Of a stretch of DNA of 64,000 nt, positions 42,319-62,980 are shown piece after piece. Where the stretch lies: contig CAVTTN010000002.1 in assembly GCA_963737655.1 (NCBI GenBank), forward strand, positions 6,016,001 through 6,080,000, given 5' to 3'. The notes below the pieces were generated by a model that was not told the DNA's origin, did no database searches, and saw only the letters and a program-made list of their open reading frames with translations. Numbering within the stretch: the stretch's first letter is position 1; every line of letters begins with the position of its first letter. This DNA is from an uncultured Planctomycetota bacterium (lineage in GTDB: Bacteria > Planctomycetota > Planctomycetia > Isosphaerales > Isosphaeraceae). A program made the translations under genes and the position numbers.

Positions 42319-43866
42319 TCACGGGCGCAGTTCCCAGGCGTCGAGCGACCGGAGCCGGGCCGGGCCTCCGGTCGCGAAGAGCTCGACCCCGAGGCTGGCG
42401 GGCGCGGGGAAGACCTGATCGGTCAGGACGGCCCGGCCGCCGTCGGCGAACACCTCGACCGAGGTGGCGTCGAGGACGACGTGGAGCTGCACCGGACCCT
42501 GGAATGTGCCCGGGGCGAGGCTCGCGGAGTGGCGGCCGGCGAAGTGCGGGCTGAAGCCGACGGCCCCGGAGCGCGTCCGGTCCACGAACACCGTGCCCGA
42601 GCGGCGATCGAACCCGATCGCGGTCTCCTCGCCGTTTCCGCAGCGGACCTTGATCCCGAATTCCCCGGCATCGCCGCCGTCGAACTCGGCGAGGATCTCC
42701 ATCGAGGCCCCCGCGATGCCGTCCCCTCGAAGGGACGTCGATCCGGCGGGCATCGGGCGGGCGGCGAGGGCGTGGTGGTCGCGCCGGAGCGTCTTCAAGG
42801 TCTCCACCGGGGCCTGGACGATGCGGAAACCGTCGTCCGTCTTGCGGAGCGAGACGGTCCGGGGGATCGTCATGGCCCCTCGCCAGGGCGCGGTCGGGAT
42901 CTCGTTGGCGTATTGCCAGTTGTTCATCCAGGCGATCCAGACCGGGCGAGCCCCGGGGGCGTCGTTCCAGGTCTGCGAGGCGTAAAAATCCTTGCCGAAG
43001 TCGATCCAGAGGGGATCGTCGGTCTTCCCCTCGGCGCGGAATGACGTGCCGTCGAACCGGCCGACGAAGTACTGGCCGCCCGAGCCGCCGAACGGCGCGC
43101 CGTCATTGACATCGACCTTGAGGACCCATCGGGTCTCGCCGTCGTCGCCGTTTTCCACGGGGGCCTCGAACAGCTCGGGACATTCCCAGACGCCCTTGGC
43201 GGAGCCGGCGGGGCCGAAGTCGCCGAGCGGCTCCCAGGCCTTGAGGTCCTTCGAGCCCCAGAGGCGGACCTTGCGATCGTCGGCCAGGACGGTGGCCATG
43301 ATCCAGCGATCGGTCGGCCCGTGGCGGAAGACCTTGGGGTCGCGGAACGAGTTGGAGTGGAGGTCGAGCACGGGGTTGCCGGGGAACTTCGCCCAGGTCC
43401 GGCCGCGATCGGTGCTGGAGGCGAGGTTCTGCGTCTGCGTCTTGTGGCCGTCTCCGGTGTAGACGGCGACCATCGGCGGAGAGTCCGGGCGGCCGAGGCC
43501 CGAGGTGTTCTTCGCGTCGAAGACCGCGCTGCCGGAGAAGATCATGATGCCGTCCTGCTCCCGGAGGGCGATGGGAAGATGTTCCCATCGCAGGAGGTCG
43601 CGGCTGACGGCGTGGCCCCAGCTCATGTGGCCCCAGCGGTCTCCCTCGGGGTTGTGCTGGTAGAACAGGTGGTACTCGCCATCGAGGAAGACCAGCCCGT
43701 TGGGGTCGTTGATGAAGTTTCGGGGGGGCGTGAAGTGGAACCGAGGGCGAGGGCCTTCGGGGCCGTCGGCCCGGGCGAGGGGGCCGGCCCCGAGGCCGAT
43801 CGCGGCGAAACAGGCGGCGAGGATCGCGGTGCGCATGAGGTGTTTCCCCGGGGTTCGAAGGCTCAT
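42319..43866 (-). CDS. Glycoside hydrolase family 32 (levanase / beta-fructosidase), secreted
   Basis: FINDPNG, WGHAVS.DL, FSGSAV, FRDPKV, WECPEL, DFYASQTW, SVEVF. Confidence 0.95.
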   Translation of the reverse strand: MSLRTPGKHLMRTAILAACFAAIGLGAGPLARADGPEGPRPRFHFTPPRNFINDPNGLVFLDGEYHLFYQHNPEGDRWGHMSWGHAVSRDLLRWEHLPIALREQDGIMIFSGSAVFDAKNTSGLGRPDSPPMVAVYTGDGHKTQTQNLASSTDRGRTWAKFPGNPVLDLHSNSFRDPKVFRHGPTDRWIMATVLADDRKVRLWGSKDLKAWEPLGDFGPAGSAKGVWECPELFEAPVENGDDGETRWVLKVDVNDGAPFGGSGGQYFVGRFDGTSFRAEGKTDDPLWIDFGKDFYASQTWNDAPGARPVWIAWMNNWQYANEIPTAPWRGAMTIPRTVSLRKTDDGFRIVQAPVETLKTLRRDHHALAARPMPAGSTSLRGDGIAGASMEILAEFDGGDAGEFGIKVRCGNGEETAIGFDRRSGTVFVDRTRSGAVGFSPHFAGRHSASLAPGTFQGPVQLHVVLDATSVEVFADGGRAVLTDQVFPAPASLGVELFATGGPARLRSLDAWELRP

Positions 43867-45270
43867 TCGATGCCCAGCGTCTTCTGGATCTCTTCGAGGG
43901 GGACGCCCTTGGTCTCGGGCATCAGGAACAGGGCCCACAGCAGTTGCAGGGCCATCATCGCCGCGTAGAAGGCGAAGGCATGGCCGCCGGAGCTCCGGGC
44001 GATCAGGGGGAACGTCCAGGTGATCAGGGCGGCCATGACCCAGTGAGTCGTGCTCCCCAGGGCCTGCCCCTTGGCGCGGACGCGGTTGGGGAAGATCTCG
44101 CTGATGAACACCCAGATCACCGCCCCCTGGCCGAACGCATGGGCCGCGATGAACAGGAGCAGGCCCCCGAGGACGACCGCCGAACCCGTCGCGGTGAACT
44201 CGGTCCCATACGTGTAGAAGGCCCACGCCGTCGCCCCCAGGCTGACGAGGTAGCCGGCCGAGCCGATCAGGATCAGCTTGCGACGGCCGATCCGGTCGAT
44301 CACCGTCATGGCCAGCATCGTGAACAGGAGGTTCGTCCCGCCCACGGCCACGGATTGCAGCAACGCCGAGTCCTTGCCCGCGCCGGCCATCTCGAAAATC
44401 TTCGGCGGCGTAATACATGAGCGCGTTGATCCCCGAGAGTTGATTGAACATCGCGATGGCCACGGCCAGGAAGATCGGCCGGCGATACTCCCATCGGAAC
44501 AGGGAGTCCGACCCGTGATGGTGCGAGAGGTCGAGCGATCGCCGGATGTCCTCGACCTCCTCGTCGATCCCCGGGCCATCGACGCCCAGCCTCGCCAGGA
44601 CGGCCCTGGCCTCCTCGACCCGGCCTCGGGCCATCAGCCATCGGGGGCTTTCCGGGGTGGGGAACAGCAGGAGGAAGAACGCGGCCGACGGGATGACCTG
44701 GACGCCCAGCATCCATCGCCATTCCGACGCGCCCAGATTCAGTCGCGCGATCAAGTAATTCGACAGGAACGCGACCAGGATGCCCAGGACGACGTTGAAT
44801 TGCTGGGCCGCCACCAGCCGGCCGCGCACCCTCGCCGGGGAGATCTCCGCGATGTACAGCGGCGAGACGACCGAGGCCCCGCCGACGGCGAGCCCTCCCA
44901 GGGCGCGGAAGGCCAGGAACGAATACCAGTCCCACGCCAGGGCGCTGCCCAGGGCCGAGACGAAATAGAGGACCGCCAGGACCATCAGGGCCTTCTTCCG
45001 GCCCCACGAATCGGCGGGCTTTCCCGCGAAGATCGAGCCGACGATGGTGCCGACCAGGGCGATGGCGACGGTGATCCCCAGGAGGTTTTCGCTCAGATGA
45101 TACGTCGTCTTGATCGCCTCGGTGGTGCCCGAGATCACGGCCGTGTCGAAGCCGAACAGGAGGCCGCCGAGGGCCGCCACGATCGCGCTGCCGATCAGGA
45201 CCGGGGTGACCGAGACCCGGGCCGGGGGCCGGGTCGCGTCCCCGGCCGGTCGAACGTCGGTGGGAATCAC
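43863..45270 (-). CDS. MFS sugar porter (frameshift near 44405)
   Basis: LGGLLFGFDTAVISG, YIAEISPARVRGRL, PESPRWL, QLSGINALMYY, SEIFPNRVR, PETKG. Confidence 0.93.
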
Positions 45271-46172
45271 GGGAGGGCCTCCGTCTCGGGGTCCGGGGGG
45301 AACTTCAACGCATCGGGCAGGGTGGGCGTGCCCCCGGGCTGGGAGCAGACGAACGCGGCGACCTCGTTGGCATGGCGGTTGATCTCGTGGAGAGGGCGAC
45401 CGAGCAGGAGGCCGACGACCAGGGCCGCCGTGAAGGCGTCGCCGGCGCCGATCGTGTCGCGGACCGAGACGGCCGAGCCCGGATGCTCGGACCATTCGCC
45501 GCCGGACCGCAGCAGGCTGCCGTGGGGGCCTCTCGTCAGCGCCACGAGCGACAGGCCGAAGCGGTCGGCCAGCTCGGTCATCGCGGTTTTCGGGTCCGCC
45601 GAGAGGCCGAACATCGCCGCGAGCTCGGGCAATTCCTGGTCGTTGAGCTTCAGGGCGCTGGCCAGCTCCAGGGACTCGGCGATCACGTCGCGATCGACGA
45701 ACGGGGGGCGGAGGTTCACGTCGAGGAGGCGCAGGGCCCCGGGTCGGCTGGCCGAGACGATCGCCCGGATCGCCGATCGCGACGGCCCTTCGCGTTGCGA
45801 GAGGCTGCCGAAGCAGACCGCCCCGGCCCGGGCCGCGCGATCGAGGGCCGCCGGGCCCGCCTCGATCCGGTCCCAGGCGACGTGCTCCCGGATCGTGAAT
45901 CGCGGCTGGCCGTCGGCGGCGAGCTCGACGTCGACGGTCCCGGTGGGGAGCTCGGGATCGACCTGGACCGTCTCGGTCGGGAGGCCGAGCCCTCGGAATC
46001 GTTCCAGGACCTCGCGCCCCAGGGGATCGGCGCCGACCCGGGTGATCAGCGCCGCGTCGGCGCCCAGCGATCGGCATTGATACGTGAAATTGGCCGGTGC
46101 GCCGCCGAGCTGCTTGCCCGTCGGCAGCAGATCCCAGAGCACTTCGCCCACGGCGAGGATCGGAGGACTCAT
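45267..46172 (-). CDS. PfkB-family carbohydrate kinase (fructokinase-like)
   Basis: GEVLWD...GGAPANF, DVNLR, DTIGAGDAF. Confidence 0.93.
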   Translation of the reverse strand: MSPPILAVGEVLWDLLPTGKQLGGAPANFTYQCRSLGADAALITRVGADPLGREVLERFRGLGLPTETVQVDPELPTGTVDVELAADGQPRFTIREHVAWDRIEAGPAALDRAARAGAVCFGSLSQREGPSRSAIRAIVSASRPGALRLLDVNLRPPFVDRDVIAESLELASALKLNDQELPELAAMFGLSADPKTAMTELADRFGLSLVALTRGPHGSLLRSGGEWSEHPGSAVSVRDTIGAGDAFTAALVVGLLLGRPLHEINRHANEVAAFVCSQPGGTPTLPDALKFPPDPETEALP

Positions 46173-49875: not shown

Positions 49876-52800
49876 ATGAGCAAGTCGTCGCGGAAGAGGA
49901 ACCACGGCCGGATGGCCTGGCGGAGGCGGCCCGCCGCCCTCCCCGACCGGGCCTTCCGGCCCTCGCCGGTCGATCGGCTGGAGGACCGAACCGTCCCGTC
50001 GCCGGTGGTCGGCGGCCTCCACCTGCTCCACGACACGGGCGTGTCCGGCTCCGACGGGATCACGACGGACCCCACGATCGCGGGGACCGTGACGAACGGG
50101 GGCGCCCGCGTCGATGGGCTGACGGTCCAGGTCGATGTCAACGGCGACGGCCAGGCCGACGGCACGACGGCGACGGACAGCGCCGGGGCGTTCGTCTTCG
50201 ACCCGTCGAGCCTGGACCTCGCGCCCGGCACCGTCCACGTCTCGGCCCGCGCCGGGGCGTTCGACGCGACCCAGGACGCGACGGTGTACGGGGCCTGGAC
50301 GAACCTGAGCTTCACCCTGGAGGCGCCCGACCCCCCGCCGGTGGTCGCCTCGCTCGGCCTCCTGAACGACTCGGGGCCCCGGACGGCGTGACCTTCGACC
50401 CGACGCTCACCGGGGTCGTCACCGACGGGGCGACGGCCTCGGGCCTGCCGGTCCAGGTCGACACCAACGGCGACGGCTACGCCGACGGCAACGCGACGAC
50501 CGACGCCAACGGCGGCTTCACCTGGACGCCGACTCGCCTGACCCCGGGCCGGTGACCGTCGAGGCGAGGGCGGGGGCCTACGATCCGGTCCAGTCGGCCT
50601 GGGTCTACGGGGACTGGAGGACGTTCAGCTTCACCCTGGCCGCGCCGACGCGCCCCCGGTGATCCCCTCGCTCTCCCTGCTCCACGACACGGGCTCGTCG
50701 CCGTACGACCGGATCACGTCCGACCCGAGGGTCACCGGCTCGGTGACCAACGACGGGCCGACCTCGGGCCTGACCGTGGAGTTCGACCAGAACGGCGACG
50801 GCCAGGCCGACGGCACCGCGACGACCGACGCCCAGGGGAACTTTATCGACCTGCCCTCGGGCCTGTCCCCCGGCCCGGTGACGATCCGGGCCCGGCCCAC
50901 CGAGTACGATTCGGTGCTCGGGGCGGTCCAGGACGGGGCCTGGGTCTCCCTGAGCTTCACCCTGGTCGCCAACACGGGCCCGGTGGTCACGTCGCTGGTC
51001 CTGGCCGATGACAACGGGGCGTCGTCCACCGACGGCATCACGTCCGACCCGACGGTCAAGGGGAGCGTCACGGACCCCGACGGCGCCTCGGGCCTGACCG
51101 TCGAGGTCGACGAGAACGGGGACGGCCAGCCGGACGGGACGGCGACGACCGACTCTCAGGGGAATTTCACGTTCGTCCCGCGAGGGCTCGCCCCGGGGCC
51201 GCAGACGGTCCGGGCCCGGGCCATCGCCCACGACTCGGCGGACGGTCGCGACCTGACGTCCGACTGGGTCGCCGTCAGCTTCACCCTCCTGGACCACGTC
51301 AAGGCCGCGCCGACGCTCGCCTCGATCGCCCTGCTCGACGACACCGGCACCTCGGCCTCGGACCTGGTGACGACCGACCCGAGGATCGCCGCCTCGGTCA
51401 CGAGCCAGGAGGCGGGCATCTCCGGCCTGGCCGTCGAGTTCGACACCAATCATGACGGCGTCCCGGACGCCTCCGTCCTGGCCGACGCGACCGGGGCCCT
51501 GACGTACAATCCGCTCTGGGCCCGGCCCGGGACCGTCACGTTGCAGGCCCGAGCCAAGGGCTACGACAGCGACCAGTCGGCCGAGCTGTACGGCGCGTGG
51601 ACGAGCTTCAGCTTCACCCTCCAGTCCAATCCGCAGGCGGCGCCGGTGGTCGCGGGCCTGGCCTTGCTCGATGACACCGGGGCGTCCTCGACCGACAACG
51701 TGACGGCCGACCCGGCGTTCGGCGGGGCGGTCACGCAGAACGGGACGGCCTCGGCCGGGCTGACGGTGGAGATCGACACCAACGGCGACGGGACGCCCGA
51801 CGCCACGGCCACGACCGACTCCGGCGGCCACTTCGCCCTCTCGCCGGCCGGGCTGGCGGCCGGCCCGGTGACGGTCCGGGCCCGGGGCAAGGCGTACGAC
51901 TACGGCCTGGGGGCCTACGTCACGGGCTCCTGGGCGTCGCTGTCCTTCACCTTGACGACGGCCTCGCCCCCGGCGATCACGACGCTCGGCCTGGCCAACG
52001 ACAACGGCGTGTCGGCGACCGACAAGATCACCAGCGACCCGTCGATCGCCGGGGTGGCCTCCTCGGGCACGAACGGCGGCTCGGGCCTGACGATCGAATA
52101 CGACACCAACGGCGACGGCCAGGCGGACGGCTCGGCCCCGGCCGACTCCCAGGGCCGGTTCAGCTTCACGCCGGCCCAACGCCCGGCCGACGGCCCGGTC
52201 ACGATCCAGGCCCGGGCCAAGTCCTGGGACGACACGCAGCAGGCCTGGATCGTCGGCTCCTGGACGCCCTTCTCGTTCACGCTGGTCGCCCCGGCCGCGC
52301 CGACGATCCAGGCGCTCGGCCTGGTCAACGACGACGGGACGTCGTCCACGGACAAGGTGACGAGCGACCCGCGAATCCAGGGGACGGTCCGGGCCGACGG
52401 CTCCCCGGCGGGGCTGCTCATCCAGGTGGACACGACGGGCTCGGGGGTCGCCACGGGCACGGCCCGGACCGACGGCCAGGGCGGGTTCGTGTACGACCCG
52501 AGGGACCTCAAGCCGGGCGCCCACACCGTCCAGGTCCGCGCCGGGGCCTACGATCCCGACACCAAGGCGTACCTGTACGGGGCCTGGGCCCCGTTCAGCT
52601 TCACCCTGACCACCGGCTCGTCCTCCGCGCCGTCGGTGACCGGCCTGGCGCTGCTCAGCACCGGCGGATCGGGCGGGACCGGCGGCTCGGGCGGCAAGGG
52701 CGGGCTGGGCGCGCCGGGGTCGGGCCCGATGTACGGCCCCCCCGGCTCGACCTCCACCAGCGACCCGACCGTGACCGGGACCGTCACCAACGGCGGGGGG

Positions 52801-55800
52801 AGCGTCGATCACCTGACCGTCGAGTTCGACACCAACAACGACGGCTCGCCCGACGGCTCGACGACGACCGACGCCCGGGGCAACTTCACCTACCGCCCGC
52901 CGCTGACCACGGCCGGCCAGGTGACGATCCAGGCCCGGGCGAAGGTCTGGAGCTACTCGCAGTCGGCCTACGTGACGGGCGCGTGGGCCTCGATCTCGTT
53001 CTCCTATTCGCCGAGCGGCTCGGCGAGCAACCCGGGCGTCAACGGGGCCCTGCCCGGGTCGGGGAGCGAGGTCGCCGCGTCCGACGCGGCGTATCGCTCG
53101 TCGGTGGCCCAGGGCGGCTCGACCTACGACGCGAACGTCGGCGCCTCGGGATCGACGGCCAACGGCGCCGCGGCCCTGGGCGTGGGGAGCTACACCCCCC
53201 TGAACAGCCAGGGCAACGCCTCGACGACCTCGGGCACGCCGGACCTCAGCCCGACCTTCAGCGTGAGCTCGCCCTCGTCCTCGCCGGCCCCGAAGACCTA
53301 CAACAACACGCTGACCACGAACGACTCGCCGACGACCCCCACCGGCTCCGCGACCCGCTCGGAGACCGAGACGATCACCTACAACCTGACCGCCTCGGGC
53401 GGCTCCTTCACCCTCGACGTGACGATCGACCTGAGCTTCTCCTACACCGAGAAGGGGGATTACGCGGTCTCGGCCAACGGCGAGACGGATAATCACTCCT
53501 ACATCATCAACGTCAGCGGCAAGTACAAGCTGGTGCTCCACGAGTCCGGGACCTACTCGACGACGGGCCCGGGGGTGACCGAGTCCGGCTCGCTCTCCGC
53601 GACCGAGACCGGCTCGTACAGCTCGGACTACATCGACACGGACAACTACTCGCTGAGTTCGACCGGGAGCTCGGGCGGGGGGACGTCCACGACCGACCTC
53701 AAGGGGGGCTACAGCTTCTCCTACGGGGAGTCGGGGAGCTTCAGCGCCGGGGGCGGCCATTCCGGCGTGACGGACGGCTACACGCTCTCCGGCTCGGACG
53801 ACTTCTCCTATTCCGGGACCGATTCGGGCCATTTCTCGTTCTCGTCGTCCGGCGGCGGGGGCTCCTCCTCGTCCAGCGGGACGTATAGCGACGGCGCCTC
53901 GGGCTCCTACGGGGACAGCTACGGCGATTCGGGCCAGTACTCGGCCAGCGATTCGGCCTACACGTTCACCGGCTCCTACACCTACGGCGAGGGGGGCGGC
54001 GACTCCACGACCGAGAGCGACTCCGGAGGCTCGACCTGGAGCGCCTCGGGCGACAGCGGGTCGGACAGCTCGACGTACACCGACGCCTACAACCAGAACT
54101 ACACCTACGGCGAGGGCGGCTCCTACACCGTCACCGACAAGACCCAGGTCGTCTCGGCCAGCGCCCGGCTGACCGCCCACGCCGACGAGACGATGGGCCT
54201 CCAGGGGGGCGATTCCTACTCGGTCGTGGAGGGCCAGGACAAGTACACCGGCTCGGTCGGCTACTCGTCGTCCGGGACGTACTCCGAGGACGCCACCGCC
54301 TCGGCGTCGGAAACGATCAACGGCGCGAGCACGACCGTCTCGGGCCGCACCTCGGTCGAGGCGACGGGGGGCTCGACCGACTCCTCGCAGGACTCGGGGA
54401 CCTACCTCGTCGTCGGGGCCTCCAGCGGCAACAGCGGGACGTATCACGACTCCGACAGCCAGTCCGGGAGCTACGACGGCAAGATCTCCGAGAGCTTCAC
54501 CGACGCCAATGGCGCCGTGAACGCCAGCGGGACGTACAGCCTGGACGACGGCGGCACCGACACGTTCTCCAGCGGAGAGACCGGCCAGTACGCGGACTCG
54601 TCCTCGACCAGCAGCGACAGCGGCACCTTCACCACGGCGATCTCGGGGACGGACGCCTCGTCGGTCCATTACTCGTCCAGCTTCACGCAGACGCCCTCGG
54701 ACTTCTCGGTGACGGGGAGCTTCGCCACCAGCGATTCCGGGTCCGGCAGCGAGTCCTACTCCGAGAACGGCAACTATTCGAGCTCCTACTCCACCAGCAG
54801 CTACGACTACGGATACAGCTCGTCCTCGGGCTCGGACGTGGGCCACTTCACCGAGGCCCAGTCGGAGACCGAGAGCACCTCGGACTCCGATTCGGGCTCC
54901 TACGCCTTCGACGACGCGAATTTCAGCCTGACCCACAGCGTGAGCAATTCGGACTCCCTGGGCTCCTCGTTCTCGTACTCCGGCGGGGGCGACTTCACCG
55001 ACTCGACGACCGACGGCTCCGGCACCACGACGACCCGGGGCAGCTACACCAGCACCGAGCAAGGGACGGACGCCCTCTCGACGGGCCTCGCCGGGTCGGC
55101 CACCACGAACAACAACGCGTTCTCCTCCAGCTCCACGGCGACCCGCCACGACGCGACGACCGGCTCGGGCAGCGAGAGCGAGGCGGGGTCGTACTCGTCC
55201 AGCGTCACGACCAACGGGACGACCACGACGACCCAGGGCCAGTACGCGTCGTCCGACGGCGGATCGTCCTCGACGAGCGACCAGGACACGGCCCACTACG
55301 CCCTGAGCAACTCCTCATTCGGCGTGACCGGCTCGTACAACCATGCCGAGTCGGCCGGCGGGAGCTCGTCCTACCAGGATGCCGGGACCGTGACCGACTC
55401 GTCATCGAACGAGACGGACACCGACAACTACACGTATTCCGACGCCCAGACCGACGCGGAGACCTATTTCGACTCCGGCACCTACAGCCAGGGGTCGGCG
55501 TTCGTGAACGACGGCAACTCGGGCGCGACGACGATCCACGGCTCGATCGACTCGGAGACGCACTCCGGGACCTACTCCGGCACCGGGGGCTTCGACAGCT
55601 TCGGCTTCGGGACGACCAGCTACGGGGGGGATTACCAGACCAGCGACAACTCGTCCTCGACCTTCTCCTCGGGCGCCTCGGGGGCCTATCACAAGGACAA
55701 CGTGAACTCGACGACCTCCGGCTCGTTCGGGAGCTCCGAGGGGGCTCGTCGTCCTATTCCGACACGTTCCACGACCACTCCTCGACCTCGGGCGGCGGCA

Positions 55801-58363
55801 CCTCGACGAGCGGATCGACGACCACCACGACCCTGGACAGCGAGTCGGAGAACTCGAGCATCAGCGAGTCGGGGAACTACGGGTTCTCCTCCGGCGATTC
55901 GGGGACGTACTCGACCTCCAACGGCTATTCGCAGACCAACGGCAACTATGCGGACAGCTCGGCCGAGTCCGACACCTGGTCGACCGGCGGGTCGGGCAGC
56001 TCGTCCTCCTCGGCCGTGACCTCGACGTCGTACAACTACCCGGGTTCGTACGGGTACAGCGGCGGAGGAGGCGGGGGCAGCAGCACCATCAGCGACTCGA
56101 CCTCGAGCTCGGGGTCCGGCAGCGAGAGCGGCGATTCGAGCCTGACGACGACCGACCAGGGCTCGTACACGGCCTCGGCCTCGCCCACGTCGTCCAGCCG
56201 GGTCAGCGACGGCCATAATTCGGCGTCCGAGACGCGGTCGGCCCAGGCCAGCTCCTCGGGCGGGGGGACGACCTCGCATTCGTCCTCGGCCACCAACGGA
56301 GGGGGGAGCAGCTCGTCGGGCTGGACCAGCACCGGGCAGACCACCGCCTCGGCGAACACCAGCTTCGCCTACCAGGAGGCCAGCACCTACCACTCCGGCG
56401 ACGCCAACGCCTCGACCAACGGCACCTTCTCCTCGAGCTCGGGGACGAACCAGGCGAGCACGTTCTCCGGGACGTATCAGAGCGGTTCGTCTTCCAACTA
56501 CAGCAGCTCCTACAGCGGGGGGAGCAGCTCCAGCAACAGCCAGAACTCGTTCAACGCCTCGATCGCGCAGACCGGGACGGTGAGCTCGACCTACAGCGAC
56601 TCCGGCACGTTCGGCTCGAGCTCGTCGGGGAGCTGGACGAACGGCTCGTTCAGCAAGACGAACCGCCAGGTCAGCTCGGCGGCGTACGGCGATACGTCCA
56701 CCTATCAGAGCTCGTCGCATTCGAGCGACTCCTCGTCGTCCGAGGACGACTCGGGGGGCGGCGACGCGAGCACCTCGCTGACCCAGCAGCTCACGACGAG
56801 CTCGCGGAACTCCGCCACCTACTCCCAGGGGCCGGGCGGCAGCACCAACAGCGGGAGCGACAGCCTCAGCCACACCGGCAGCAACACCTACGGGGCCACC
56901 GCCCACAGCCACGACTCCCAGGGCTGGAGCAGCGACGGCGCCACCGGGACGAGCACCAATTCCTACAGCCATTCCGAGGGCTCCAGCGCCGGGCATTCGG
57001 ACTCCGCGTCCGACTCGTTCACCAACGGCGCGAGCACCGGCGACAACGCCTCGACCGACGTCTCCTCGAAGAGCTACGTCACCGACGGCAGCGGGAGCTG
57101 GTCCTACTCCTCCAGCAACGACAGCGGCAGCGGGAGCTCCTCGAACCATTCCGAGGGCAACTACACCGGCACCGGCGGGAGCTCGGCCCACTACACCCCG
57201 ACCGGCTCCAGCGGCGACTTCAGCGAGGACGAGGACAGCACGCAGAGCTCCAACAGCTCGGACAACGGCACCTCCACCTCGATCAACCCGCCGTCGTTCG
57301 ACAGCTACATCTTCCAATCGACCTACAACGACCACTCGACGTACCAGGCCTCGGGCACCCTGAACAACAACACGCCCGACGGCACGTTCTCGCAGACCAC
57401 CAGCGGCCTGGCGACCTACTCCGGCGCCGGGGTCAGCGTGAGCCCGGCCGGGACGTTCCCCTGGTCGTTCTCCTTCGCGATCCCGCACTACAACGAGATC
57501 GACGGCAAGATCACGGCCGAGGGGCGGGAGGCCGGCGCGTCCTGGCTCGACGACCTCCAGACGATCCTGGACGTCGCCGGGATGATCCTCCCGTTCACCC
57601 CGGCGGCGGAGTTCGCCCCGGTCGTCGACGAGCTGAACGCCGGGATCTCGTTCCTCCGGGGCAACTACCAGGACGCGGCCCTGCGCGCGACCTTCGGCGC
57701 GATCCCGCTCCTGGGCAAGGCGGGCGGGGCGGCCCAACTGGCCGAGGACGGGAGCAAGATCACCTCGGGCCTGGCGAACCTCGGCGAGAAGCTCGCGCCG
57801 ATCGGCCAGGCGGGCCGCGTGATCCTCGGCGGGGTCGGCATCTACTCCGGCCTCGGCGACATCCGCGAGGGCCTGACCCGCGTGGGCGAAGGCGACTGGA
57901 TGGGCCTCTGGCAGGTCGCCCGCGGCACTCTGGCGCCTACCACGGCATCAGCTCGATCGCCCACGTGACCAACGAGATCGGCCTGTTCAACCTCTGCGGG
58001 ACCCCCCTGGGCGACGCCTTCGGCATCGGCAACTGCTTCGTGGCCGGCACCCGAGTCGTCCTGGCCGACGACTCCGAGACGGTCCTGCTCGCCGCCCTCC
58101 CCGGCCTGGACGCCGACGCCGACGCCGACCTCCAGGCCGACCTCCTCGAAACCGTCCGGGTGCCGCTGGGGATCACCTGCGTCGTCCTCGGCGCGGGCCT
58201 CGGCGGCCTCTGGCTCTACCGGGACCTCCAGGAGAGGCGACGACGCCGGAGGGCCCTGTTCCTCGACCTCGCCATCGACGACCACTTCGGCCCGGACGAC
58301 CCGGACGACCCGACCCTCGACGACCTCGCCGCCGAGCCTCGCGGCCTCCTCGGCATCGCCTGA
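49876..58363 (+). CDS. Giant polymorphic-toxin carrier (~2800 aa): leader, nine Ig-like repeats, Ser/Thr/Gly-rich region, pre-toxin helices, Hint N-fragment, TM anchor (frameshifts near 50380, 50545, 50650, 55740, 57930)
   Basis: VDRLEDRTVP leader; ~105-aa repeats DTGxSxxDxITxDP...DxNGDG...W.SFTL; S/T/G/D/Y-rich tract ~53050-57450; LDVAGMILP...DELNAGISFLRGNY...AIPLLG; GN/CFVAGTRV at 58034; TM followed by RRRRRR. Confidence 0.82.
49995..53010 (+). repeat. Nine tandem ~315-bp coding repeats (Ig-like, DxNGDG loop)
   Basis: Recurring aacggcgacggc and ttcaccctg landmarks; the ninth copy has a Gly-rich insertion. Confidence 0.8.
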
Positions 58364-58423
58364 CGTCGTCCCGCCCGATCTCACGGACCCTCCGACATCG
58401 CACACCCCACCGAGGTGAGGACC

Positions 58424-59646
58424 ATGAAGACGCACACGACCCCCCGACGGCCCGGCGGCCTCTGGCTGGCGATCGGCTCCTTCGTCCTGACGGCGGCGGG
58501 CCTGGGGCTGCTCGCCCGGCCGGCGGCGCGGCCCGCCCCGGATCGCCCGAAGCTCGTCGGGCTGGCCCACCGGCCCGGTGCGGCCGAGGCGACCCCGCGG
58601 ACGCTGGACATCCAGTCGATCGCGCTGGGCCAGAGGGTCGTCGGCTCGAACCCCGAGCGCGACGCCTCCGCCCTGGAGGAGGCCGAGCCCGAGCCGTCCT
58701 CGTGGCGGGCCGTCCGGCTGAGGATGACCAAGGCGACCGGCAAGAGGCTCGACATCGCCCTGCTCCGGCCCCTCGAATGGCTCCGCTCGCGAGAGGCCCG
58801 GGTCGGCCGGACCGTCGAGCTGAACCTCCGGGAGCTCGGCGCGGCGGGCAAGGCGGAAGTCCTGGCGATCGAGCCGTGCCCGGAGATCCGGCCGGGGACC
58901 GGCCACGTCGTCACCGGCACCTTCGCCCACGAGCCCGACAACCGGCTCCTCAACGTCCGGGTCGAGGGCCAGGACGAGCCGATCGGCTGCACCGACAACC
59001 ACCCGTTCTGGTCCGAGGATCGAGGCCGGTTCCTCAAGGCGGGCGAGCTCCGGGCCGGGGACCGCGTCCGGACGCTCGCCGGGACCCGGAAAGTCGAGGC
59101 GGTCTCGCCCCGCCCGGCCGAGGCCCTGGTCTACAACATCGAGGTCCAGGCCGAGCACGTCTACCTCGTCTCCAACGCCGGGGTCCTCGTCCACAATGCC
59201 TACAACGAGGAGACCATCGAGGAGACCGAGGAGAACCGGGGCCTGACGTGGACCACGGAGAACACCGGCAAGGAGAGCCAGGCGAAGGCTTGGGAGGACG
59301 GGGCCACCGGGGCGAGGTATCGCATCTCCGACCACATGCGAGAAGTCCCGGCCTTGCGCTACGACAACGCCAACCCGCGCGGCAATAATTACGCCCGCTT
59401 CGATGGGTGGGGCCGGAGGAGCCCAACACGCTCATCGATCGGAAGTGGAACGTGACGACCAAGTCGGGGCAGGTCGCCAAATTCAGGAGCGGGCCCCTTG
59501 AAGCCCTCAGCCAGAACCCGGAATATCGTCTGAGGCTCGAGGTCCCGACGAACCGGGCGGCGACCGACGCCCGCCGGCTCCTCCGCTACGCGACCGGCAT
59601 GGATTCGCACCCTCAGATCGACATCGTGGTCGTCCCCCAAGAATGA
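58424..59646 (+). CDS. Membrane-anchored Hint C-fragment fused to a PD-(D/E)xK (restriction-endonuclease fold) toxin domain (frameshift near 59410)
   Basis: GAGGTG RBS; N-terminal TM LWLAIGSFVLTAAGLGLLA; IQSIALGQRV, CTDNHPFWS, VYNIEVQAEHVYLVSNAGVLVHN/A; then RFDG...LIDRK...LEVP. Confidence 0.85.
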
Positions 59647-60329
59647 GCAAGGACAATCGAAGGATCTGGCTGGTCCTGCACTCGCGAGCCGAGGAGTCCG
59701 ACCCGGTCGAGCGGAAGCACGCCCGCTTCTTCGAGGGCTGCGAGTCCCTGCCCGCCCCCTGGGGCCCGGGGGGCCGCCCCTACCCCCCGGTCCCGCCCTT
59801 CTTGGGCGGGTCGACGGCGATCCTCTCCTGGACCAAATACCTCGGGGGGATCGCTCGACGGGCCCTGATCAGCTATCGATACCGGAGGCTTCTCCGGGAC
59901 GACGGACTCTCCGACGACTTAGTGACCATCGTCTTGGCGGCCTCCAGGATCGACTGGGATCTCCTCGCCAAGGCCGTGATCCCGACTTATCTGAGGGCCT
60001 TCGACGCCTATCTCGTGGAGGTGTTCGACGAATCCTCCTTCACCGAATCCGGAGGGAACTCCCGGGAGGCCTTCAATCCTCGCTCCGAGGTCCGAAAGCT
60101 TCGCATCATCAACTATTTCGATGCAGAACTCTGCCGGCGCACCTTCAAGGCCTCGCCCGGATCGCTCCTCCTCCTGGTCACGGACAAGGCGGCTCACGCC
60201 GAAATCATCAACGATGGCCTCTACCTGATCCCGGCCGATCCCGGCTCGCCCCCGGACCTGATCGACGGCGCGTGCCAGGCCTGTTACGAGGCCCTGATCG
60301 GGACGAATCCTCGAACGCGACTCGGATGA
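59643..60329 (+). CDS. Putative cognate immunity protein
   Basis: ATGA overlap with the toxin stop; 228 aa, no signal peptide, no recognisable enzyme motif. Confidence 0.75.
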   Translation: MSKDNRRIWLVLHSRAEESDPVERKHARFFEGCESLPAPWGPGGRPYPPVPPFLGGSTAILSWTKYLGGIARRALISYRYRRLLRDDGLSDDLVTIVLAASRIDWDLLAKAVIPTYLRAFDAYLVEVFDESSFTESGGNSREAFNPRSEVRKLRIINYFDAELCRRTFKASPGSLLLLVTDKAAHAEIINDGLYLIPADPGSPPDLIDGACQACYEALIGTNPRTRLG

Positions 60330-60470: not shown

Positions 60471-62610
60471 ATGGACCGCCACCACCCGATTCCGACCGGA
60501 CCTCCGGGCCACGCGCCCGCCGGTTCCGCTCCCGACCCCCCCGCCCTGAACGACCTGGGGCTTCGCCTCGGCGAGGCCGGACGGCTTGACGAGGCGGAGG
60601 CGGCGCTTCGGGGGGCGATCTCGGCCGACCCGACGTACCCCGAGGCGTGGAACAACCTGGGGATCATCCTGGCCCGGACTCGCCGGCCGGATGAGGCGGT
60701 CCGGGCCTTCCGCGAGGCGCTCTGCCTTCGCCCGAACTATGCCGAGGCCCTGAGCAACCTGGGCCTGACCCGGGCCCGGCTCGGCCAGCCGGAAGAGGCC
60801 GTCGGCTGCTATCGCGAGGCCATCCGGCTGAAGCCCGACTACCCGCAGGCGCTGACGAACCTGGGGATCGCCCTCGTCGGCCTGGGCCGCGCGGAGGAGG
60901 CCGTCGAGGCCCATCGCCGGGCGATCCGGCTCGCGCCCGGAATCCCGAGGCCCACAGCTCCCTGGGCCTGGCCCTGGGGCGGCTCGGGCGGAAAGACGAG
61001 GCCGAGGCGAGCTTTCGCGAGGCGATCCGCCTCCGTCCCGAGTCCACCGAGCCCCGGAACAACCTGGCGAACCTGCTCGCCTCCCGGGGCCGCCGAGACG
61101 AGGCGATCGCGCTCTATCGCGAGGCGATCCGCCTCCGCCCGTCGTATGCCGAGGCGCACAACAACCTCGGCAACGCCCTGGTCGAGGCCGGCTTGCCCGG
61201 CGAGGCGATCGGTCATTACGAGGCCGCCCTGGAGATCCAGCCGGAGTATCCCGAGGCGCACAACAACCTCGGCAACGCCCTGGCCGAGCGAGGGCTCCAC
61301 CACGACGCCATCGCCCGATACCGCCGGGCCCTGGAGATCCGCCCGAGGTACGCCGAGGCCAGGAACAACCTGGGCAACGCCCTGAGGGACCTGGGCCGGC
61401 TGGAGGAGGCGATCCCCGAGTTCCGCCGGGCCCTGGAGCTCCGCCCGAACTATCCCGAGGCGCACAACAACCTGGGCAACACGCTCCGCGGCCTCGGGCG
61501 GCTGGACGAGGCGATGGCGTCGTTCGCGGAGGCCCTCCGGCTCCGCCCGGACTATGCCGACGCGATCAGCAATCGCGGGATCGCGCACGTCGAGAGGGGC
61601 GACCTCGATCGGGCGTCCGAGGACTTCGAGCAGGCCATCCGGCTCCGCCCCGACTTCGCCGATGCTCACATGAATCGGGCCCTGACCTGGTTGACCCGGG
61701 GCGACCATGCCCGGGGCTGGGCCGAGTACGAATGGCGGTGGAAGGTCCGGGCGCCGCCCCCCGCCGCGACCCGGCCACGGAGTGGGACGGCTCCCCCCTG
61801 GAGGGGCGGACGATCCTCCTCCACACCGAGCAGGGCCTCGGCGACGCGATCCAGTTCATCCGGTTCGCGGCGAGCGTCCGCGACCGGGGCGGGCGGGTCC
61901 TCGTCGAATGCCCGAAGGGGCTGGTCCCCCTGCTCGGGAGCTGCCCGGGGATCGCGGGGCTGGTCGCCCGGGGCGAGGAGGCGCCGCCGTTCGACGTCCA
62001 CGCCCCGTTGCTCGGCCTGCCCCGCCTGCTGGGGACGACGCTCGCCAACCTCCCGAGGGCCGTCCCCTACCTCTCGGCCGATCCGGCGGCCGTCGCCCGA
62101 TGGGGCGAGGAGCTGGCGCTCGATCGCTCGTGGAAGGTCGGGATCGCCTGGCAGGGGAACCCGCGATTCAAGGCGGACCGGCACCGCTCGATCCCCCTGG
62201 CCCGCTTCGCGCCCCTGGCCGCGGTGCCCGGGGTCCGGCTCTACGGGCTCCAGAAGGGGCCGGGGACCGAGCAGATCGCCCCGGCCTCGGCGACGGTCCC
62301 CCTGGTGGACCTCGGCGCCCGGCTGGACGAGGCCGGGGCGACCTTCGCCGACACCTCGGCCGTGATGAGGCATCTGGATCTGATCGTGACCTCCGACACC
62401 TCGATCGCCCACCTCGCCGGCGCCCTGGGCGTGCCGGTCTGGGTGGCCCTCGGGGCGTCCGCGGACTGGCGATGGCTCCTCGGCCGGGAGGATTGCCCGT
62501 GGTACCCGACCATGCGCCTCTTCCGCCAATCCCGCCCCGGCGACTGGGCCGAGGTCCTGGCCCGGATCGCCGACGAGGTGCGCCGGATGGCCCCGCGCCG
62601 GGCTCCGTGA
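60471..62610 (+). CDS. TPR-repeat protein with C-terminal GT-B (GT9-like) glycosyltransferase domain (frameshifts near 60955, 61760)
   Basis: About 11 PxYxEAxNNLG TPR units; GWAEYEWRW; EQGLGDAIQFIRF; VGIAWQGN; LDLIVTSDTSIAHLAGALG; DWRW...PWYPTMRLFRQ. Confidence 0.9.
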
Positions 62611-62980
62611 CGGTGGAGGTCGGCTTCGGCGAGCTCCTGGACAAGATCAGCATCCTCGCCATCAAGTCCGAGAGGATCGCCGACCCGGAGAAGCGTCGGC
62701 ACGTCCTCGCCGAACTCGCGACCCTGGAAGAGGCCCGCGACCGCTCGATCGCCCGGACCGAGCAGGGCGCGCGCTCGAAGGCGAGCTGAAGCGGGTCAAC
62801 GAAGGGCTCTGGGAGATCGAGGAGGCCATCCGCGGGGCCGAGGCCGAGGGGGATTTCGGGGCCCGCTTCATCGACCTGGCCCGCTCGGTCTATCGCCGCA
62901 ACGACGAGCGCGCCGGCCTGAAACGCCTCCTCAACGAGCACTACCGCTCCGGCCTGGTCGAGGAGAAATCGTATTGCTGA
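62607..62980 (+). CDS. DUF6165-like protein (frameshift near 62770; may be fused to the TPR-glycosyltransferase)
   Basis: VEVGFGELLDKISILAIKSERI...LKRVNEGLWEIEEAIR...DFGARFIDLARSVYRRNDERAGLKR...LVEEKSY. Confidence 0.8.

Follow-up and report, generated by a model that had tools for sequence, protein, structure and literature searches.

In the genome of an uncultured planctomycete of the family Isosphaeraceae, the Hint domain situated between a giant carrier protein and a toxin is encoded by two genes rather than one, and each part lies next to a predicted transmembrane (TM) helix of its own. The locus lies in a stretch of 64,000 nucleotides (positions 6,016,001 to 6,080,000 of the forward strand of contig CAVTTN010000002.1, assembly GCA_963737655.1), called the window here. 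Its layout is that of a polymorphic toxin system, with a carrier part, a variable carboxy-terminal toxin, an adjacent immunity gene and further cassettes. Among related carriers the same break is found repeatedly and in all three relative reading frames; judged from these sequences, the split is real and recurrent, and no assembly accident. We put at roughly one in two the probability that the two parts assemble in trans on the periplasmic face of the inner membrane and then ligate carrier and toxin; assembly there, whichever product results, is quite probable.

A Hint domain encoded by two genes

The features of the window locus, all on the forward strand, are the following.

49876..58033, +, giant carrier of about 2,700 residues ahead of Cys1, as inferred across four frame switches (open reading frame translations, Pfam)
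58034..58072, +, Hint amino-terminal fragment, block A, from Cys1 to residue 13 (alignment, modelled interface)
58073..58159, +, acidic flexible linker between this fragment and the anchor (sequence; low confidence in the homologous contiguous model)
58160..58219, +, helix TM1, carboxy-terminal anchor of the carrier, predicted from charge to run from outside to inside (hydropathy scan, charge bias)
58220..58363, +, cytoplasmic tail with Arg run, acidic stretch and TGA stop (sequence)
58364..58423, +, 60-nucleotide intergenic spacer with Shine-Dalgarno sequence GAGGTG at 58412-58417 (duplex energy, third-position G/C)
58424..58516, +, start of the second gene: Met, basic n-region and helix TM2 (58460-58516), predicted signal anchor from inside to outside (sequence, charge)
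58601..59197, +, Hint carboxy-terminal fragment with block B TDNH (58991-59002), block F and the terminal His-Asn (PT-HINT, model, Foldseek)
59198..59646, +, carboxy-terminal toxin domain with Ala as +1 residue (open reading frame translations)
59643..60329, +, probable immunity gene, overlapping the toxin stop (position)

At the end of the carrier, the TGC codon for Cys1 at 58034 is followed by CFVAGTRVVLAD, the acidic linker and the hydrophobic stretch of TM1; six Arg codons (58235-58252) and an acidic tail then lead to the TGA at 58361-58363. The ATG at 58424, 60 nucleotides past this stop, is in the same frame as the carrier end. It opens a protein with a basic amino-terminus, the hydrophobic stretch of TM2, IQSIALGQRV, the TDNH motif, VYNIEV and finally VHN before Ala, the terminal Asn codon being 59195-59197. 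Against the Pfam family PT-HINT the second protein scores 40.4 bits (cut-off 27.7). A previous interpretation of this DNA, the sequence-only reading, had named the Cys at 58034, the two helices, the TGA, GAGGTG, the new ATG and the Ala behind VHN, and we found all of them again.

The TGA might be a sequencing error or be read through, the protein really being a contiguous form with a hairpin of two helices: the assembly contains many indels, the frame is unchanged over the spacer and 34 homologues are contiguous. Against this, the spacer is unlike coding DNA, with G or C at the third position in 14 of its 20 codons versus a fraction of about 0.955 in each of the halves beside it (p 2e-4), and its GAGGTG is a strong Shine-Dalgarno sequence, forming a duplex of -10.2 kcal/mol with the anti-Shine-Dalgarno octamer. 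These two properties support the earlier statement that the break differs from the indel errors elsewhere in the window. Among the split loci described below, 16 of 24 change frame, as does a second split locus of the same genome, and the family-wide pattern would remain whatever the state of this one codon. We regard an error or read-through as very improbable; the caveat in the sequence-only reading of read-through or a recent nonsense change is disfavoured by recurrence in all frames with new starts.

As assembled, the carrier consists of five pieces, with frame switches near 50385, 50540, 55800 and 57945. Since the last of these lies only about 30 codons ahead of Cys1, we infer for the window that block A is joined to the carrier; the junction is directly visible in relatives and in the second locus of the genome, where 1511 codons are open. 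The toxin has one frame switch, near 59410. A gene for a TPR-repeat protein with a glycosyltransferase-like tail (60471-62789, +) is also frame-switched, which fits assembly indels.

The second locus belongs to a short subfamily of the domain, that of the window to a long one.

G000:C2:1854889-1861877 (L281:8890-15878), second split Hint locus, short subfamily, with an intact 1511-codon carrier

Here and below, numbers with G, C and L are our handles for genomes, contigs and loci. The order at this locus is carrier, Cys1, helix, basic run, TGA, 107 nucleotides, ATG, helix and Hint carboxy-terminal part (C-part); the frame relation is other than that in the window, and two anchored Hint-toxin genes lie behind the carrier. 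A search with the short subfamily as query gave 30 loci, four of them split and six contiguous hairpin forms as judged by motif. The genome also encodes four HEAT-like proteins with a contiguous carboxy-terminal Hint domain, in which VHD (His-Asp) replaces the His-Asn and a short tail follows (G000:C2:103410, 2439875, 2807939 and 4779752); they represent a common planctomycete family, distinct from the split-Hint family.

Recurrence of the split and stand-alone toxin halves

Relatives were surveyed in 41 and then 401 genomes, plus one metagenome scan and one genome-contig scan, and regions were excised around most matches that were multi-copy or in complete genomes. At an E-value of 1e-25, 68 of the 401 genomes of the class match, and titled records among the matches are nearly all from Planctomycetota. 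The 280 loci gave 371 aligned pieces and 257 distinct near-complete Hint C-parts, which were sorted with a profile built from block A and the first helix. In 34 of the 257, block A and the remaining Hint domain are contiguous with two helices between them; ten are contiguous without a helix (six more are helix-less by motif only); 30 have block A in a different frame or open reading frame; and for 183, a number that includes the six motif-only cases and short contigs, no block A was detected upstream. From the 30, four were dropped: L170 and L171 for masked runs, L239 for a 2 kb gap and L150 as the contiguous, neighbouring carrier is of the other subfamily. Two others were counted apart, L076 and L153, whose carriers keep block A and both helices and end in a short tail, lacking a Hint C-part of their own; an anchored Hint-toxin gene lies behind each. 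The open frame that contains the L153 carrier (G128:C1 near 5529200) spans 13,571 codons.

This leaves 58 hairpin-bearing carriers, 34 in one open reading frame and 24, including the window, split between the helices (L098 is nearly a copy of L103, and L051 closely resembles L125). The homologue search proposed in the sequence-only reading thus found relatives that are not all contiguous, and the two-gene, two-anchor arrangement it had described recurs. Split loci are spread over the three relative frames as 8/8/8. All 23 scored loci have an ATG at most 45 codons ahead of helix 2, with 13-118 nucleotides from stop to ATG; L051 was left out of this scoring because an assembly duplication shifts its frame. 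The Shine-Dalgarno sequence is strong in 14 of the 23, compared with 16% of 406 internal carrier ATGs. The single-contig genomes G174 and G188 and a cultured-strain record (L221) contain split copies, and 15 of the 24 have a carrier open for at least 500 codons. Cys1 and Phe2 are invariant in 60 of 60 aligned rows, which were selected on this motif, and Thr6 of block A is kept in at least 90% of split carriers, a conservation that the row selection favours.

In the contiguous forms, an ATG lies at most 35 codons before TM2 in 19 of 34 and a strong Shine-Dalgarno sequence in 7 of 34 (background 16%), with ATG densities of 0.020 versus 0.013 per codon. An internal start is suggested for single cases (L031, L242) and is not established as a rule. 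Breaks number 24 in about 6,500 loop codons against one stop in about 14,700 codons from TM2 to the Asn, a comparison biased by the finding of loci through intact Hint motifs and not used as proof. A tree of 75 Hint C-part cores (L101, with an internal stop, was left out) requires 10-12 changes of the split label, 2-4 of them forced by starred branches. A single origin of the split was rejected as one clade in an approximately unbiased test (p 0.0003, quick LG+G4). As Hint C-part modules shuffle between anchors, the tree gives no clean history, and the direction, fission or fusion, is not shown by it. One array (L357, G312:C1:522000-540000) has, besides a contiguous carrier, a small hairpin cassette that is contiguous and includes a Cys1, three stand-alone halves in which both subfamilies are represented, and an isolated fragment of block A and helix.

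Toxin genes consisting of anchor, Hint C-part and toxin also occur by themselves. Among 113 carboxy-terminal halves (C-halves) whose frame is closed and which lack an upstream block A, 100 have the helix, and in 78 of these an ATG lies at most 45 codons before it. In the complete genome G232, 14 intact full-length stand-alone genes form three clusters, mostly alternating with small immunity-like open reading frames, and all 14 begin at a Met about seven codons ahead of the helix. Their dN/dS of 0.16 for the Hint part and 0.28 for the anchor part indicates purifying selection. The pattern for amino-terminal halves (N-halves), which fits 47 of 60 known ones, and the profile each find a single N-half in G232, on a contiguous carrier of 5,610 codons; an extra weak match (E 0.06) lies beside Hint fragments. 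The stand-alone genes share 51-54% DNA identity with this carrier and at most 14 consecutive bases, which makes them poor recombination donors and plausible trans partners. In G368, three genes lie behind one split N-half; they have the same anchor, and their Hint C-parts come from two subfamilies. Genes of this kind are, by their numbers and substitution pattern, common and under selection, as would be expected of the separately encoded warheads that the sequence-only reading had envisaged.

These observations bear on the view that the split loci are decaying, that the stand-alone halves are silent recombination cassettes and that only the contiguous form is active. Such cassettes belong to the classical model of polymorphic toxins (PMC3482391; this and the other papers are cited for the parts of their text that were available). 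Some cassettes behind contiguous carriers, for example in L031 and L033, retain loop stretches upstream of TM2, carriers in L040, L069 and L101 are short or broken, and the Hint C-part of L101 contains a stop. The new ATG in all 23 scored loci, the excess of strong Shine-Dalgarno sequences, the 15 long open carriers and, in G232, the low dN/dS and the distance from the carrier all speak against decay, which we consider quite improbable.

Membrane topology, models and the proposed reaction

The regions flanking the helices are strongly biased in charge. In 57 loci, helix 1 has on average 0.4 Lys and Arg residues before it and 5.7 after it, with more after than before in 57 of 57; for helix 2 the means are 3.1 before and 1.1 after, with more before than after in 45 of 57 and seven ties. 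According to the positive-inside rule, basic flanks are cytoplasmic. The loop between the helices would thus be cytoplasmic, placing both Hint halves on the outer, periplasmic face of the inner membrane, in agreement with the orientation earlier proposed for the window alone.

A model of the contiguous homologue L031 contains one Hint domain from which the hairpin is extruded, with a predicted local distance difference test score (pLDDT) of 98 for residues 1-10. It superimposes on the bacterial intein-like (BIL) domain of Clostridium thermocellum (2LWY) with a Z-score of 16.5 and a root-mean-square deviation of 2.2 Å over 131 aligned residues, tied within one Z unit with Tetrahymena BIL2 entries. 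The window C-half was modelled with a pLDDT of 94.6, and 2LWY is its best Foldseek match (E 2.3e-7). This fragment exceeds the solved BIL domain by about 65 residues; the insert of the long subfamily (58700-58880), with the conserved pattern W..L..LRP..W...G..V.L...E.G..G.A.V..I.PCP, is modelled as a confident beta element lacking in 2LWY. The amino-terminal strand is a core strand of the modelled fold. In a two-chain model, the window N-half docks through residues 1-13, adjoining blocks B and F, with a score of 0.79 against 0.00 for the best of three controls; at least 79% of contacts recur between runs, and the pLDDT of the partner is at least 52. The mark used is passed by 116 of 157 solved complexes and by 2 of 215 mismatched pairs. 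The modelling check suggested by the sequence-only reading therefore came out in favour of assembly in trans, in the sense of compatibility: residues 1-13 may slot into the C-half, and the amino-terminal fragment proper (N-fragment) would comprise only about 13 residues.

We propose that a two-helix membrane hairpin was inserted into a polymorphic-toxin Hint domain after its first 13 or so residues, giving the contiguous form as the source of the split one. The loop between the helices, cytoplasmic and dispensable, would be where the gene was often split, leaving a carrier that ends in the Cys1 strand, linker and TM1, and a separate gene for TM2, the rest of the Hint domain and the toxin. Tethering to the membrane would compensate for weak binding of so short an N-fragment. 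Once the strand has slotted into the carboxy-terminal fragment (C-fragment), Cys1 would undergo an N-S shift and the terminal Asn would cyclise; the new amino-terminus of the toxin, through a Ser or Thr side chain or, with a +1 Ala as in the window, through its free amine, would attack the thioester. The ligated carrier and toxin would leave the membrane as one, the Hint parts remaining on their anchors, and a single carrier could receive its warhead from any of several toxin genes, provided that these are expressed. Contiguous carriers might be re-armed if an inserted C-half captured the strand before the C-part of the carrier itself was made; in G232, 15 candidate full-length Hint-toxin frames face one detected carrier. 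As a general account, diversification of planctomycete contact toxins by trans-splicing at the outer surface of that membrane, with one carrier and many anchored warheads, is somewhat more tentative than ligation in itself.

Conservation of block B touches on whether the halves act together at all. Block B TxxH acts at the amino-terminal junction in intein chemistry. Of 180 stand-alone halves, 172 retain it, although they lack the junction it serves, which counts for assembly in trans. If the halves acted apart, the C-half would cut itself at its terminal Asn, TM1 would be a mere anchor and the Cys1 strand a relic. The large C-fragment of an engineered split intein, broken at the S1 position, did show spontaneous carboxy-terminal cleavage (PMC3620165), and many C-half genes are distant from any carrier; G116, a draft of 60 contigs, has three full C-half genes and no N-half detectable with the profile, itself weak. 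Set against this are, besides TxxH, the retention of block A with its Thr6 in split carriers and the core position of the amino-terminal strand in the modelled fold, and independent action appears unlikely.

More serious is the possibility that assembly in trans ends in double cleavage, with carrier and toxin cut from their anchors and then separate or bound non-covalently. Cleavage is the usual outcome for BIL domains (PMC7664689, PMC7765530), the HINT domain of polymorphic toxins has been described as a release peptidase (PMC3482391), and the +1 residue in the window is Ala. A freed toxin would, however, lose the pre-toxin segment that ends the carrier. The toxin tails, 243 in 173 clusters, are too diverse to fit one non-covalent binding site well, and no paired Cys links the two exteins (p 0.30); both points count for ligation. 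We consider double cleavage, the main rival, possible if somewhat unlikely; the N-fragment would then be a trigger, with the moment of toxin release set by the presence of a carrier. For ligation it also counts that the Hint parts pin both exteins to the membrane, so that only splicing would free a toxin still joined to the pre-toxin end of the carrier, and that engineered N-fragments of 11-12 residues trans-splice (PMC3620165). At +1, 186 of 254 cases have Ala, Ser, Thr or Gly, 94 of them Ser or Thr, which also counts for ligation, as does BIL splicing without a +1 nucleophile, reportedly named in the titles of Dassa 2004 and Aranko 2013 (for trans-splicing, in a title cited by PMC7664689).

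Several observations weigh against ligation, or against the wider scheme. BIL domains yield chiefly cleavage products (PMC7664689), and type A is described as unable to ligate (PMC7765530). The +1 residue is Cys in none of the 254 cases and is Ala in the window, and the +1 spectrum may not discriminate these domains from ordinary PT-HINT toxins. Cys1 would have to act in an oxidising compartment. The charge count for TM1 is partly circular where the profile used for finding included the basic tail. Halves of one split domain can pass the docking mark by likeness to solved Hint folds, so that docking attests compatibility and not binding. A strong Shine-Dalgarno sequence precedes only 27 of the 100 helix-bearing stand-alone genes, the G116 draft yielded no N-half, and the loop remnants in the L031 and L033 cassettes resemble products of recombination.

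Export of the carrier is a difficulty for all of these readings. The carrier contains Ig-like repeats, a Ser/Gly-rich beta region and a Gly/Ala-rich helical pre-toxin segment, with Pfam matches to Big_13 and CarboxypepD_reg; PT-TG gave no match in the window and a sub-threshold one (E 4.8e-4) in the second carrier of the genome. The carrier amino-termini inspected have a basic LExLExR-type motif and lack an obvious classical hydrophobic signal peptide, which makes the outward passage of thousands of residues before TM1 hard to explain. The window carrier has an amino-terminal RLEDRTVP motif that resembles the planctomycete extracellular (Planc_extracel) or LEPR-XLL motif, although its residues gave no match in Pfam or NCBIfam. 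In relatives the matches are sub-threshold (PF07595 with E 1.8e-4 for L169, NF012209 with E 0.005 for L281).

Cysteines are also found around the reaction site. One is present in the last 25 carrier residues (57959-58033 in the window) in 23 of 66 loci, compared with 21 of 371 background windows, and could pair with Cys1 as a redox brake. Within eight residues past the His-Asn, a Cys occurs in 9 of 10 helix-less forms versus 24 of 56 hairpin or split forms; the window toxin contains no Cys anywhere. A disulfide tether between carrier and toxin was considered and rejected, the carrier-end and toxin-start Cys not being associated (14/9/19/24). Some C-halves have a CFW motif where TM2 ends, which was likewise rejected as a hidden Cys1; it lies within the helix, misfits block A and is absent in the window.

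Known systems, toxin and neighbouring genes

With type-A BIL and PT-HINT domains (the C. thermocellum BIL domain 2LWY, the Hint domains of CdiA and MafB) the window domain shares the Hint fold, Cys1, TxxH, the terminal His-Asn, the lack of a +1 Cys, the position between a conserved carrier and a variable toxin, and the immunity gene behind. Described members are contiguous, soluble, single-chain domains, whereas that of the window is split and has two membrane helices within it. Its stand-alone toxin genes open with their own anchor and without block A, and the long subfamily has the insert of about 65 residues.

Split inteins have Cys, Ser or Thr as +1 nucleophile, reside in a conserved host protein and restore one fixed protein. 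In the split Hint domain, by contrast, the +1 position holds Ala in the window and Ser or Thr in 94 and Cys in none of the 254 family members, both flanks of the domain vary, carrier and interchangeable toxins take the place of the exteins, both halves are anchored, and the reaction would be extracytoplasmic. The fragments of the window domain are encoded by separate genes, and a model has them reassemble. Very short N-fragments are likewise known from atypically split inteins (VidaL, 16 residues; PolB16, 15; AceL TerL, 25), that of the split Hint domain being a structured one of about 13. VidaL and PolB16 break at the S1 position, after the first two strands (PMC13014065); this is also the break point in the window and in engineered S1 split inteins with fragments of 11-12 residues (PMC3620165).

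The orphan cassettes of contact-dependent inhibition (CDI), Rhs and Maf systems are similar in forming arrays of toxin-immunity pairs near or far from a full-length gene and in keeping a conserved pre-toxin part. Classical cassettes are swapped in by DNA recombination, with HINT as release peptidase (PMC3482391; also PMC4725963, PMC7738311, PMC13483458). Unlike these, many split-Hint cassettes start at a Met before the anchor helix and evolve under purifying selection, and their divergence from the carrier can be too great for recombination. Toxin exchange by recombination appears possible where cassettes share the carrier loop, as in L031 and L033, and unlikely in G232.

Full-text literature searches, outside whose reach lay supplements and most subscription papers, and the available part of a preprint (10.1101/2023.11.21.568195) gave no membrane hairpin inside a Hint domain and no naturally split toxin Hint domain. 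The architecture is apparently undescribed, save that supplements may list it. In many planctomycetes the two-gene Hint domain probably lets one carrier join different toxins at the protein level. Ligation, if true, would diversify toxins in a new way: protein trans-splicing would have a physiological role, in combinatorial toxin assembly rather than in restoring one fixed protein, and some 'orphan' toxin cassettes would be expressed and used without DNA recombination. As only Hint chemistry would let carrier and toxin come off the membrane together, the question whether BIL domains cleave or ligate becomes directly testable here. The natural pool of split Hint pairs, large, with N-fragments of about 13 residues and Ala, Gly, Ser or Thr at +1, would be useful for protein ligation tools, for which their predicted activity outside the cytoplasm is also relevant.

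The window toxin has FDG and D..K motifs. Tox-REase-5, a toxin type considered together with Imm52, has the motifs Y, FDG, EAK, Q and W (PMC3482391); the window toxin has FDG, but IDRK instead of EAK. A nuclease of restriction-endonuclease fold is a lead only, and Pfam, Atlas and a protein homologue search gave no match. Pfam families among the toxins of homologues include AHH, REase and others. Atlas neighbours of the immunity gene are uncharacterised clusters; one, with a score of 0.91 and Imm52 on 18% of its members, is a weak pointer, recognition being below the mark. Elsewhere in the window, one open reading frame of 1252 residues (42319-46077, -) encodes a sugar transporter of the major facilitator superfamily fused to a glycoside hydrolase of family GH32.

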